Positions 20,160 through 26,874 are shown, numbered from the stretch's first letter. The stretch is 64,000 nt of DNA from Candidatus Spongiisociaceae bacterium (GCA_965262915.1 OZ253564.1:2784001-2848000), one strand, 5' to 3'. Numbers and translations: made by a program. Notes: generated by a model not told the origin, from the sequence alone.

Positions 20160-20927
20160 TTCCAAGCAGTGGTGCACCTCTGTCGTCGACGTGGGAGGCC
20201 GCCAGTTGATCGACAAAGTGGCGGGTAGAACGGCAGAGAGCGCCGTGTCGTGGTTCCTCGCACAGCCAGCCGATTGGCTCGAGGGGATCCGCTGAGCGGT
20301 GCCGGGTCATGTCCGGTCCGTATCGGAAGGCGTATGACAGGGTGCTACCGGACCCCCTCCAGGTAGGGGATCCGTTCCACGTCATACGCCTCGCCAACCA
20401 GCGTCTCGACGGAGTACGACGCCGGGTCCACAACGAAACCCTCGGCCATAGAGGACGCAAAGGTGACGCGCTCTACGGCATACGCCGCCTCCTCACCGCC
20501 GCTCATGAGAAGATCAGCGACCGCGGTCAAACCCGCTTGCGCGGTTTCCTCGATGCTGGTGACCCCCACGGGGAGGTACGCACGGCCTGGCATGCGAAGG
20601 AAACCGTCCGAGGTATCTACAACATTGAGAGTCCGGTCCTCGCTCTCCAGTACACCCTCCAGCTCGCAGACGACCTCCAACACGAATCCTGCCCACCCGA
20701 GATCAACAAGTTGGGTCGCACCATCGCCTGTTGGACCCCCAGATCACCAACTGGCACATCTCGAAGGTAACCAATGGACCCACCGAAGCTCTCAACAACC
20801 TGATCAAACGAATCAAACGAGCAGCCTTCGGGTTACCCAACTTCGCGAACTACCGAATCCGGGCCCTCCTATATGCGGGGAAACCCAACTGGGACCACCT
20901 CGCATCGGTCACTCCCTACTGAGATCC
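20160..20927 (+). pseudogene. ISL3-family transposase remnant (5' truncated, frameshifted); terminus split by IS110 copy 1
   Basis: VVDVGGRQLIDKVAGR, MSGPYRKA, DPFHVIRLAN, TNGPTEALNNLIKRIKRAAFG..NFANYR; remaining terminal GATGAGCC at 22405-22412. Confidence 0.8.
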
Positions 20928-20954
20928 ACTCATAATTAGAAGGTTCCTGGGCTA

Positions 20955-21130
20955 GGGCGGGTCTGACCCAACTGAAATCTGGCCTTGTGCCTTTTCATCG
21001 ATCTGTCGGCCCGTTCCCGGCCTGGGGCGTGACGCCCGTGACCCGGGGCGGATGTGACCTAATAGGAGCCTTCAACTTCTCCACCGTGAGTGGCCTGTCC
21101 AACCGCACACGGGTCCGGGGATCGGAAATG
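20955..21130 (+). ncRNA. Candidate IS110 bridge RNA, copy 1
   Basis: Scaffold shared with 22573-22750; segments match own target (ACTGAAATC, TCATCGAT) and donor (ATAGGAGC, TGAGTG); ends approximate. Confidence 0.75.
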
Positions 21131-21158
21131 ATTCTATCCCCTAGAGGAGAAGAGCATC

Positions 21159-23164: not shown

Positions 23165-24618
23165 GGCGGATTCAATTGGTGGTCGCAACACTTGGTGATG
23201 AAGGAGGTTTGCGGTGAGTGTTGTGAAGCGTCGGGAGGCGGTTCGTGTGATGCGGGGTCAGTTGTGGTCGCCTGGTCGGCCGTCGAAAGCGCGGCGTGAG
23301 GATCGGGTCCGGTTCTGGGAGGGGATCGCTGGGGGTGTCTCGAGTGAGGACGCTGCTGCCGGGGCGGGGGTGTCACCGGCGGTTGGGTCTAGATGGTTCC
23401 GCCAGGCTGGTGGGATGCCGCCGATCTCTCTGGGTTCGGTGTCGGGCCGTTATCTGTCGTTTACCGAACGGGAAGAGATCGCTATCTTCTGTGCGCAGGG
23501 TGTGGGGGTGCGGGAGATCGGTCGTCGCGTGGGTCGTTGCGCGTCGACGATTTCGCGGGAGTTGCGCCGCAACGCGTCAACTCGTAGTCGTGGTGTGGTT
23601 TATCGGGCAACGACAGCGCAGTGGCACGCGGAGCGGCGTGCCAGCCGCCCGAAGGTCGCGAAGCTGGCCGCCAACGACGAGCTTCGTGAGTATGTGCAGG
23701 ATCGTTTGGGTGGTCAGATCGCCCGCCCGGATGGTGAGCTGGTGCCAGGACCCCAGGTGCGCTGGGCGGGTCGCCGTCACGGAAGGCGAGCTGACCGGCG
23801 GTGGGCAACGTCGTGGAGTCCTGAGCAGATCTCGAGGCGGCTCCGGATCGATTTCCCTGATAATGAGTCCATGAGGATCTCTCACGAGGCGATCTACCAG
23901 GCGCTTTATGTGCAAGGCCGAGGCGCGCTAAAACGGGAGCTTGTGGCGTGTCTGCGAACCGGGCGAGCTTTGCGGGTCCCGCGGGCACGGACCCGGCAGC
24001 GGCGCCGCACCTTCGTCAGCCCCGAGATCATGATCAGCCAACGCCCCGCCGAGGCCGACGACCGGGCAGTGCCAGGACACTGGGAAGGTGACCTGATCCT
24101 GGGACTTCGGAGTTCCGCGATCGGGACGCTGGTTGAGCGCACCACCCGGTTCACGATGCTGTTGCATCTCCCACCCATGCCAGGCCACGGAAAACAGCAA
24201 CGGGTCCACAACGGGCCCCCTCTCGCCGGCCATGGCGCCCAAGCCGTACGAGACGCTATCGCTGCGTCGATCATCACCCTGCCCCAACAGCTCCGGAAGT
24301 CGTTGACCTGGGACCAAGGAGTCGAAATGGCTCAGCATGCTCAACTCCGCACAGAGGCCAACCTCGACATCTACTTCTGCGACCCGCAGAGTCCATGGCA
24401 GCGTGGAACCAACCACAACACCAACGGTCTGCTCCGCCAATACTTCCCCAAAGGCACCGACCTCCACAGACACTCACGCAACGACCTCGACGCTGTCGCT
24501 GCAGCACTCAACAGCCGACCCCGCAAAACCCTCGGCTGGAGGACTCCAGCCGAGGCCCTCAACGAATACCTACACTCCCTCAAACAAGGCAGTGTTGCAA
24601 CGACCCCTTGAACCTGGG
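23165..24618 (+). mobile_element. IS30-family insertion sequence
   Basis: Imperfect ~27-bp IRs ending GCAACAC / GTGTTGC; TTG direct repeats 23162-64 and 24619-21. Confidence 0.88.
23214..24611 (+). CDS. IS30-family transposase
   Basis: [55 protein letters not shown] (catalytic E position reads H). Confidence 0.92.
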
Positions 24619-25232
24619 TTGCCCTCCGGCGTCGGAGTGATGCACCAGCCGCCGATCTGGGGAGGCTGTGTCGGGTCGCCGGGCCCAGAGTGCTTGCTCC
24701 AAAGCGTCGAGCGCCAGGTCGGTTCGTAGACTGTTCGACACTCGCCAACCGACGACGAACCGGGAATAAGCGTCGATCACCAACGCCACGTAGACGAAGC
24801 CCGACCAGGTCGGAACATAGGTTATGTCGGACAGCCACAGACGGTCCGGGCGGTCCGCCTCGAAGCTGCGGTCGACCAGATCAGCGGGTCGGGCCGCGCT
24901 GTCGTCGGGGATGGTCGTGCGCTTGGTTTCGCCTCTGACCACGCCTTTTAGGTCTTCCAGGCGCATGAGACGCTCCACCGTGCATCGAGCCACCTCTACT
25001 CCTTCACGATGTAACTGACGCCAAACCTTGCGGGCTCCGTACACCCCGAAGTTCGACTCCCACACCCGCCGAATCTGGGGCCTCAGCTCCCCGTCCCGGC
25101 GACACCGGGCCGATCGGCGTTCGGGTTCACGCTCCCGCCGCTTGTGCTCGTAGTAGACAGACGGGGCGATCGGCAACTCAGCACAAATCGGCTCGACCCC
25201 ATAGGTCTCTCGGTGATCATCCACGAAGGTGG

Positions 25233-25556
25233 TCATCTCCGGGGTCGGCGGTCGAGCTCCGCCTGCGCGAAATACGCAGACGCCTTCCTCAAGATCTCAT
25301 TCGCCCGCCGCAGCTCCCGGTTCTCCCGGCGCAACTCCTTCAACTCCGCCAGCTGATCCGAACTCAACCCAGGTCGCAAACCCTGATCCGTCTCAGCCCG
25401 CCGCACCCACTTGCGTAGCGTCTCCGACGAACACCCGAACTTCTCCGCTATCGAACAGATCGCCGCCCACTCAGAACGGTGCTCCCCCCGATGCTCCAAC
25501 ACCATCCGGACAGCACGCTCCCGCACCTCCGGCGAATACATCATCAGTCTTCCCAT
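25233..25556 (-). CDS. IS3 OrfA
   Basis: [47 protein letters not shown] overlap with orfB. Confidence 0.9.
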
Positions 25557-26874
25557 GACTCCATTATCTCCCAACCAATAGAGTCTCCGGGAAACCCGGG
25601 GCGGTTCAGGATACGCATGTGGGGGCGTTGGTGGATAGCGCTGGTCGGCTGCTGGGTTCGGAGTCGTTCTCCGCGGAGGCATCCGGGTATCGGCGTATGG
25701 TCGCCTGGTTCGGGTCGCAGGGTCGGCTGGTTCGGGTCGGGATGGAAGGGACAGGCAGCTACGGCGCCGGCCTGGCTCGCTATCTGACCGCAGCCGGGAT
25801 CGAGGTGGTGGAGGTGAACCGCCCCAACCGGCAACTACGCCGCCAGAAGGGCGGCAAGTCTGACAGCGTCGACGCCGAGGCACCAGCCCGGGCGGCTGCT
25901 AGCGGGGAGGCGGCGGCGGTTCCCAAATCTGGTGATGGGCCGGTTGAGTGCCCTGCGGATGCTGTTGGTGGCCCGCCGCTGGGCGACCAAGGCCCGCACC
26001 CAGGCGGCTAACCAGATCCATTCTGTGATCGTTGGTGCCCCAGAGCCGGTAAAACACCAGCTCAAGGGCCTCAACCTCAGAGCACGAGTAGCGGTTTGTG
26101 CCCGCTGGCGTCCCGGCCAAGCACAGACCACAGCCGCGTACGCGAAGAAGGCTCTACGCCACCTGGCCCGCCGATACCAAACCCTCAACGCTGAGATCAC
26201 CCAACTCGAGAGAGACATCCGCCGTCTCTGCGCCCGGGCGAACCCGGCGTTGTTGGCCGCCACCGGTGTGGGCCCTGACACAGCCGCCGCTCTGCTGGTC
26301 GCCGCCGGCGACAACCCCGGGCGAATGAAAACAGAAGCGTCCTTCGCGGCGCTGTGCGGCACCAGCCCTGTCCAGGCATCATCAGGACAGACCATACGGC
26401 ATCGTCTCAACCGGGGCGGCAACCGCCAAGCCAACAGCGCTGTGGCCGATGCGCTACCACCCGGATACGTACCGACGCTGCCACCAAAGAATATGTGACC
26501 AGACGCCAGGGAGAAGGCAAGAACCGAAAAGAGATCATCCGCTGCCTCAAACGCCACATCGCCCCACAGATCTACCGACTACTCACCAACCCGCCACCAA
26601 CCCCGAACTGCGCCCGCCTACGCAACCAGCGCCAACAAGACGGCATCACCATCACCCAAGCCGCCCAAGCCCTCCGAACCCACACCGCCCGCATCTCAGA
26701 ACTCGAACACGGCCGAGACCACAACCACCAACTCGCCAGCCAATACCACAACTGGCTCCTAACCCACCAACCCGCCCCGTCACCGACTTGACAACCGTAG
26801 GAGCATCCTTGGAAAGGGGGTGAGGCCCAGCTGGAATCGGCGAATAGCCAAGACGCCGATCCAGGGAGGCCTCA

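Follow-up and report, generated by a model that had tools for sequence, protein, structure and literature searches.

Insertion sequences of the IS1111 group, which belong to the same superfamily as the elements studied here, carry a guide RNA (seekRNA) at their right end, and the ISCro4/IS622 bridge recombinases, which are said to be used in genome engineering, are reportedly close enterobacterial relatives of IS621. For IS621 itself, from Escherichia coli, two papers (PMC11208160, PMC11208158) describe a recombinase with DEDD and Tnp domains and a catalytic serine, a long left end with a target loop and a donor loop, a 5' guide of 8 to 9 nucleotides (nt) in top-strand sense and an antisense 3' guide of 4 to 7 nt in each loop, and a promoter across the joined ends; the elements described below resemble IS621 in these respects, their donor loop being putative. 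The catalytic residues given for IS621 are D11, E60, D102, D105, and S241 (Hiraizumi et al. 2024, PMC11208158), and its handshake guides pair with the other DNA after strand exchange (PMC11208158). Durrant et al. 2024 (PMC11208160) sorted natural IS110 elements by guide and obtained the corresponding target motifs from 5,511 target-RNA pairs. Here, we analyzed the IS110 elements of a window of 64,000 nt from Candidatus Spongiisociaceae bacterium (GCA_965262915.1, OZ253564.1, positions 2784001 to 2848000), with window positions counted from its first letter. Two IS110 elements, copy 1 and copy 2, stand within it, and a preliminary description had proposed that their noncoding ends encode RNA guides that track each copy's own target and donor sites. 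Comparison with further copies supports this RNA-guided reading over many more elements than the two in the window, and it is very probable that these are IS110 elements with an IS621-like bridge RNA in the left end, whose guides follow their own junctions.

Every string quoted in the preliminary description was found where it had been placed, and alignment showed a scaffold common to both left ends. The left target guide of copy 1, ACTGAAATC (20971-20979), matches the flank ACTGAGATC (20918-20926) at 8 of 9 positions, and that of copy 2, GGTGAAATC (22589-22597), matches the flank GGTGGCATC (22486-22494) at 7 of 9. These left-flank mismatches are local to the window, as ACTGAAATC is present at 15 other insertions of the copy-1 guide type in the genome and the full GGTGAAATC at a sister of copy 2 and at four empty sites. 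On the right, TCATCGAT (20995-21002) is the reverse complement of ATCGATGA (22402-22409) in copy 1, and CCTTTCCAAGGAT (22612-22624) is that of ATCCTTGGAAAGG (26805-26817) in copy 2. The left donor strings recur at the right end of each element, ATAGGAGC at 21062 and 22394 and GTAGGAGC at 22682 and 26797. The right donor string TGAGTG stands at 21087 and 22708, and CACTCA stands at 20927 and 22494.

The genome surveyed, one contig of 5.06 megabases, holds 8 further near-identical copies of copy 1 and about 25 more distant relatives. A census with the scaffold gave 35 left ends and 34 right ends, which fall into seven guide types; homologues occur in 50 of 301 genomes of the same class, and loci from three other genomes add three guide types (Table 1). 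A search for related loci with the copy-1 protein gave two loci, and in one of them another assembly carries this element inserted at the identical ISL3 site. Guides were then compared with flanks by using one representative for each of the 10 types, with A and B counted once, as they have their guides in common. Representatives were picked for better-kept flanks (for type A, genome 677253-678726; for the copy-2 type, the sister copy; for type C, 1730380). Each guide matched its own flank at 134 of 140 positions in all, 85 of 90 on the left and 49 of 50 on the right, and guides scored against the flanks of other types averaged 3.9 of 9 (left) and 1.4 of 5 (right). Among 200,000 random re-pairings of guides and flanks, some of which leave pairs in place, none reached 134, and the highest total was 119. 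Copies not used as representatives score 8 plus 5 (copy 1 in the window), 7 plus 5 (copy 2), and, by eye, 8 plus 4 (the other type-C copy). Covariation of guide with flank over additional copies, which the preliminary description had put forward as the check on its proposal, was found.

Table 1. Guide types and agreement of each guide with its own flanks. The left column gives the 9 nt before UGG, equal to the left flank; the right column gives the right flank after ATC, the reverse complement of the 5 nt before GAUCUGUCG.
Type	Left	Right	Left match (of 9)	Right match (of 5)
A/B (16 insertions, all in the same ISL3 end)	ACTGAAATC	GATGA or GAAGA	9	5
Copy-2 type	GGTGAAATC	CTTGG	9	4
F	ACTGAAATT	CCCAC	9	5
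C	AAAGAACAC	AACGC	9	5
D	CGCGAAAAC	GTGGG	9	5
G	CCGGGAAAC	CGGGG	9	5
E	CCTCGTAAC	ATGAC	9	5
L040 (other genome)	CGCTGCCGC	GGCAG	9	5
L041 (other genome)		TTGCC	7	5
L052 (other genome)		AACGC	6	5

The donor guides vary together with the element ends in the same way. The first position of the left donor guide, A or G, tracks the right end among types, and L052 has GGGGC in both its left donor guide and its right end, in place of GGAGC. The right donor guide tracks the start of the left end in four combinations, ACTCA with UGAGU, AGTGA with UCACU, AGCGA with UCGCU, and TGTGA with UCACA, of which the last three belong to the types from other genomes (L040, L041, and L052). The secondary structure was assessed on an alignment of 13 left ends against 500 shuffles with five whole-structure measures. 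Compensatory changes affect 6 of the 12 pairs in the outer stem of the target loop, in which 96.8% of the cells are paired. None of the 500 shuffles reached any of the five measures, and sliding the partner strand cut the pairing to 39 to 50%. Within the target loop, the left guide occupies the 5' side and the right guide the 3' side, separated by a GGC/GCC hairpin that does not vary.

Joining the two ends of copy 1 places TTGACA of the right end 17 nt ahead of CATAAT in the left end. By sequence match, the joined ends of all 12 elements compared have TTGACA (TTGCAA in types D, E, and G), a spacer of 17 to 18 nt, and a -10-like hexamer, and no sigma-70-like site was found in the integrated left end of copy 1 (20850-21250). 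Public sequencing runs were compared as assembled contigs, and gaps in RNA cover over the recombinase gene carry no meaning. One RNA library yielded a contig of 154 nt that is identical to 20967-21110, at best a faint sign of transcription. Among DNA contigs, one runs directly from 20926 to 22404 and reads as the empty ISL3 end, skipping 1,477 nt with one shared letter. A backward joint, from 22405 to 20812, occurs in a contig of depth 3.3 and does not lie at the element ends.

Copy 1 was taken by the preliminary description to be intact, and this is borne out by an open frame of 409 amino acids, by aligned DEDD and serine residues, and by six copies in the genome that encode a protein identical to its own. 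The recombinase matches Pfam PF01548 (E = 1.2e-23) and PF02371 (E = 1.7e-19) and scores 210 bits against the NCBIfam equivalog NF033542, "IS110 family RNA-guided transposase," which has a cutoff of 140. Its best solved relative is IS621 (chain 8wt6; E = 9.5e-12, a local alignment only), with VDT aligned to IDT, VEGTGSY to IEATGTY, KTDSVDA to KTDTVDA, and SSG to ESG. The alignment to 8wt6 shows the active-site D, E, D, and D and the serine to be kept, the residues having been mapped onto the chain by eye. Outside the part aligned to IS621 lies a tail of about 65 amino acids with a helix-turn-helix at residues 351 to 386, which is recognized by Pfam HTH_31 (27.6 bits) and HTH_3 (25.2 bits), both just over the cutoff. 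In the class-wide search, most homologues match only up to about residue 345, and a few (G131, G088, and G135) match up to about residue 400. The left noncoding end spans 231 nt (20928-21158) and the right end past the stop codon spans 16 nt (22389-22404), and copy 1 is therefore assigned to the IS110 group rather than to the IS1111 group. Its limits can equally be written as 20927-22403, because one C is common to element and target. Copy 1 is probably active. Full-length open recombinase frames occur in at least five lineages (A, B, C, D, and E).

Copy 2 is a decayed element of another guide type. Its recombinase frame is frameshifted and lies in at least three pieces. With the IS3 insertion removed, copy 2 differs from its sister (genome 2007815-2009344) by 10 mismatches and no insertions or deletions, and both have the same broken frame, the longest open stretch being 188 amino acids in each. 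Copy 2 is dead as an autonomous element. Two frameshift sites are common to copy 2 and its sister, and the enzyme of a relative may therefore have moved a lineage whose own recombinase was dead but whose guide RNA was intact.

The anatomy, the covariation of guides with flanks and with element ends, the stem, the catalytic residues, and the junction promoter, all read at the level of sequence, fit the following mechanism. Transcription of the left noncoding end would yield a bridge RNA some 170 nt long that contains two internal loops. In the target loop, the left guide (the 9 nt before UGG) holds the top-strand sequence left of the insertion point and so would pair with the bottom strand, and the right guide (the 5 nt before GAUCUGUCG) is complementary, in reverse, to the 5 nt that adjoin the insertion point on the right. 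In the donor loop, (A/G)UAGGAGC repeats the end of the right end, and UGAGU(G) is the reverse complement of the left-end start. The DEDD and serine recombinase would present a circular copy, by its joined ends, to the target and insert ACTCATA...TAGGAGCATC after the C. For guides acting as RNA, the circle as donor, and the order of strand exchange, we infer from IS621.

Filled and empty sites define what is inserted, and empty sites were found for five guide types. Among 24 empty ISL3 ends, 17 read ACTGAAATCCGA[T/A]GAGCC, 6 are other 18-nt variants, and 1 is a 17-nt form. Empty copy-2-type sites read GGTGAAATCCTTGGAA (n = 4), empty type-D sites read GCGCG[A/G]AAACGTGGGT, empty type-G sites are IS3 ends with CCGGGAAACCCGGGG (n = 11), and type F has a single empty site (n = 1). 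The inserted piece is ACTCATA...TAGGAGCATC, and only the C before it is always common to target and donor. At the left junctions, C precedes ACTCATA in 35 of 35 cases, and the base before that is C in 18, A in 9, and T in 8; at the right ends, ATC follows in 34 of 34. As ATC is constant at the right junction while the left varies, the A-T of this triplet is brought in by the element, and the base at the left junction remains that of the target. The preliminary description had proposed an ATC core, which does not hold: the A-T is donor sequence, and the empty sites together with the bridging contig show that only the final C is shared. Target and donor do not have an identical core dinucleotide here, and the left donor guide does not cover A-T-C.

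These junctions are one-sided. Of 35 left junctions, 27 retain the target base (C or A) ahead of the shared C, and all 34 right junctions have the element's T there; the reverse arrangement was seen at none of them. Such a pattern would be predicted by insertion of the top strand only, and it would equally follow from an unstaggered exchange; if both strands were exchanged with a 2-nt stagger, junctions of both kinds should occur. Insertion of the top strand only is claimed for another IS110 element in a preprint (10.1101/2025.10.25.684509). The register of the left guide also differs among types. The 9-nt left guide extends to the shared C in seven types and ends 1 nt earlier in types A/B, F, and G, where the conserved U that comes next lies opposite the C. 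With the bottom strand, this U could pair as G-U, and its position opposite the core G in these three types means that the guide register may be flexible. That the natural insertions record the strand exchange of this clade, with junction asymmetry, a flexible guide register, and a dead copy-2 lineage moved by a relative, is a tentative proposal that we consider less likely to be right than wrong.

The longer right-target pairing than that of IS621 considered possible in the preliminary description is confined to the copy-2 type and does not characterize the family. In copy 2, the 13-nt match is made of 3 nt of ATC (donor sequence, invariant), 5 type-specific nt, and 5 nt of scaffold (CCTTT, conserved in most types). 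Past the 5 nt and the core, pairing extends to 6 of 7 further positions in the sister copy and to 0 to 3 of 7 in 12 other elements of nine guide types. Empty sites of the copy-2 type read AATGG, not AAAGG.

Three other explanations of these data were weighed. One is that the core is ATC, shared and duplicated, and that the copy-1 type targets a 17-nt ISL3 end, ACTGAAATCGATGAGCC, with a left end that starts CACTCA. With such a target, the register of every copy-1 guide would agree with that in the other types; in types A and G, the right donor guide is CCACTCA in reverse complement; and one empty ISL3 end of 17 nt does exist. This explanation is nevertheless unlikely, since 23 of 24 empty ISL3 ends have the 18-nt form and the contig that joins 20926 to 22404 gives that form as well. 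In a tree of the final 500 nt of the ISL3 copies, occupied and empty ones are intermingled, so that the occupied copies do not form a lineage of their own with a shortened end. The offset recurs when types G and F are set against their empty sites (11 IS3 ends and 1 site). In types C, D, and E, the left junction is CAC or AAC and the right one still ATC, and the empty type-D sites lack ATC. For the same reasons, namely, the 23 long empty ends, the intermingling in the tree, and the long bridging contig, the proposal that types A/B, F, and G are aimed at sites 1 nt shorter was considered unlikely and set aside. The sole empty 17-nt end (genome 306086, minus strand), 1 nt shorter than the other 23, may be the excision footprint of a type-A/B element.

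The guides might also act as DNA, either as subterminal repeats bound by the recombinase or as single-stranded element DNA that pairs with the target. Sequence alone does not separate the two modes of action and the RNA-library contig is shallow, but the guides sit in internal loops of a stem-loop with a covarying stem, the element lies downstream of a promoter formed at the joined ends, and RNA guidance in this family has been demonstrated biochemically and structurally for IS621 (PMC11208160, PMC11208158); action as DNA is very improbable. Still less credit is due to the idea that the matches between guides and flanks reflect chance or common low-complexity sequence. Several left guides share GAAA, and cross-type scores are therefore nonzero, reaching 8 of 9 for type A against type F. 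The permutation test does not support this idea, however, as the best re-pairing falls well below the 134 matches observed, and the right guides have no common composition and yet match at 49 of 50 positions; we give this idea almost no weight.

Several observations weigh against a bridge RNA whose guides follow their own junctions. The left flanks in the window match their guides at only 8 of 9 (copy 1) and 7 of 9 (copy 2) positions, those of L041 and L052 match at only 7 of 9 and 6 of 9, and the left guide register is 1 nt off in 3 of the 10 types (A/B, F, and G) relative to the other seven. For one type-B copy (L010, genome 3663635-3665110), agreement between guides and flanks, read by eye, is about 5 of 9 on the left and 0 of 5 on the right. 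The strict scaffold pattern truly matched only 6 of 32 loci (L031, L033, L036, L040, L041, and L052 among L031 to L062); the remaining matches were spurious, L033 comes from the window's own genome, and L036 was left out of the counts because its right end was not found. The donor-loop stem as drawn has 5 pairs and is 86% paired, with one-sided changes only, and consensus folding gave no stable model of this loop. A single-sequence fold of the left end has a z score of -1.25, with 24 of 200 shuffles as stable, and the Rfam search of the window gave no bridge-RNA family. The RNA-library contig has a depth of 3.8 and could be DNA carryover, and none of the four sequencing runs searched gave a contig with joined ends.

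This type-B copy, L010, has an open frame of 409 amino acids and ISL3-directed guides and stands at an unrelated site, and it looks like an off-target insertion. A recombinant element in a type-C target was ruled out as its origin, as it is 97 to 100% identical to another B copy in each 150-column window, and its flanks differ from the type-C target beyond a few bases. Types A and B themselves differ in an uneven way. Their recombinase genes are only 68 to 87% identical (as between copy 1 and L011), and the first 150 columns of the element alignment, where the left end begins and the target loop lies, are 94 to 99% identical. This contrast suggests that a guide module has been exchanged between lineages or that the module is under strong selection.

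Five of the seven guide types in the genome aim at other insertion sequences. The copy-1 type targets the right end of an ISL3 element, the copy-2 type and type D target the left end of a second ISL3-type element, and type G targets an IS3 end; the fifth, type C, is counted from a reading of its flank by eye. IS4321 and IS5075, which insert into the terminal repeats of Tn21-type transposons, likewise aim at ends of mobile elements. A literature search on titles and abstracts found no IS110 element aimed at ISL3 ends. Elements that land mostly in the ends of other insertion sequences spare host genes, and the elements hit are probably disabled. At the type-C sites (genome 1730380 and 715349), the translated flank resembles, by eye, the C-terminal part of another IS110-family transposase. 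At genome 4462303-4466850 (L021 and L022), a nest of three levels was seen, in which a type-F element is interrupted by an ISL3 element whose end carries a type-B element.

Six insertion sequences are nested within one region of the window (Table 2). The first ISL3 element ends at about 20927; copy 1 sits 8 nt from its tip, and the outermost 8 nt are displaced to 22405-22412. The left end of the second ISL3-type element starts about 50 base pairs (bp) beyond copy 1. The IS3-family element within copy 2 is bounded by a 4-bp duplication, GGAT, at 22825-22828 and 25609-25612, and its ALIL frameshift pseudoknot (Rfam RF01497) lies at 25162-25278 on the minus strand with 100 bits. The other Rfam match was a subthreshold radC inside the recombinase gene. 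Two IS110 target sites lie about 23 bp apart in the left end of the second ISL3-type element (window 22460-22494), a type-D site, GCGCGAAAAC/GTGGG, and a copy-2-type site, GGTGAAATC/CTTGG. The type-D site is empty in the window, and elsewhere type-D elements adjoin empty copy-2-type sites (genome 543381, 3641336, and 4419142). The end of the IS3 element inside copy 2 (window 25580-25608, …CCGGGAAACCCGGGGCGGTTCA) is an empty target site for a type-G IS110 element.

Table 2. Features of the nested region, in window coordinates.
Feature	Position	Strand	Basis
ISL3-family transposase gene, frameshifted, 3' part, and ISL3 right terminal repeat	20309-20927	+	Pfam DDE_Tnp_ISL3 on 20309-20767 and 20731-20919
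Left target of copy 1, ACTGAGATCC, the final 10 nt of the ISL3 repeat here	20918-20927	+	Same flank at 16 insertions
Copy 1, intact IS110-group element, 1,477 bp, ACTCATA...TAGGAGCATC	20928-22404	+	Empty-site contig, near-identical copies
CATAAT, -10 hexamer at left-end start	20931-20936	+	Promoter only once the right end is joined in front
Copy-1 target-binding loop	20955-21016	+	Consensus folding, covarying stem, guide-flank matches
Outer stem of target loop	20955-20967 with 21005-21016		
Left target guide	20971-20979		
Inner hairpin, GGC with GCC	20981-20983 with 20989-20991		
Right target guide, then GAU	20995-20999, then 21000-21002		
Copy-1 donor-binding loop	21050-21100	+	Stem drawn as GGAUG 21050-21054 with UGUCC 21096-21100; donor guides covary with element ends in relatives
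Left donor guide, AUAGGAGC	21062-21069		
Right donor guide, UGAGUGG	21087-21093		
Copy-1 recombinase gene, 409 amino acids: DEDD (RuvC-like), Tnp with catalytic serine, C-terminal helix-turn-helix tail	21159-22388	+	
Right end of copy 1: TTGACA 22385-22390; left-donor sequence ATAGGAGC 22394-22401; A-T-C 22402-22404	22385-22404	+	
Right target of copy 1, GATGAGCC, outermost 8 nt of ISL3 terminal repeat	22405-22412	+	Filled versus empty sites
Left target of copy 2, GGTGGCATC, within the second ISL3-type element, about 35 bp in from its left end	22486-22494	+	
Copy 2, decayed IS110 of another guide type, split by IS3 insertion	22495-26807	+	
Copy-2 left target guide	22589-22597		
Copy-2 right target guide, then GAU	22617-22621, then 22622-22624		
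Copy-2 left donor guide	22682-22689		
Copy-2 right donor guide	22708-22713		
IS3-family element within copy-2 recombinase gene	22829-25608	-	Pfam HTH_Tnp_1, HTH_21, rve
IS30-type gene interrupting the IS3 element	23214-24611	+	Pfam HTH_38
Copy-2 right end, GTAGGAGC, then ATC	26797-26804, then 26805-26807		
Right target of copy 2, CTTGGAAAGG; ISL3-type transposase gene downstream	26808-26817	+	
Second ISL3-type transposase gene	26875-28068		Pfam DDE_Tnp_ISL3 on 26875-28065

These elements show that the bridge-RNA logic can be recovered from two copies by a reader of raw sequence. One genome holds seven target specificities, with filled and empty sites for most of them, and the related recombinases and guide RNAs of this distant high-GC clade form a panel suited to orthogonality tests. 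The set also provides comparative evidence on debated points, namely, single- versus double-strand insertion and mismatch tolerance at the core. The preliminary description had called the bridge RNAs naturally reprogrammed; natural retargeting is supported by the covariation of guides with flanks, and its novelty is not, given that PMC11208160 precedes it.

Among solved structures, ISCro4 (PDB 9t56), a member of the same family, is the second relative of the copy-1 recombinase after IS621. The IS1111 group differs in that its long noncoding end is the right one (Durrant et al. 2024, PMC11208160), whereas here it is the left one. The likeness to IS621 extends to the handshake guides: the GAU after the right target guide fits the donor A-T-C in all types here, and the right donor guide is followed by 2 to 3 nt that, read by eye, agree with the left target's end at 3 of 3 positions in types D, E, G, L041, and L052. 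Unlike IS621, the present elements encode a recombinase of low identity to that of IS621 with a C-terminal helix-turn-helix tail, their host is an uncultured actinobacterial lineage of high GC content, and most of their guide types aim at the ends of other insertion sequences. Their left donor guide stops short of the core, and their left target guide occurs in two registers. IS621 has a CT core in both target and donor, whereas here a single C is always shared and the base that precedes it is not the same in target and donor in most types. This difference in the core sets these elements apart from IS621 and not from the whole family, and it has no bearing on the mechanism; the known mechanism is unchanged by the present elements.

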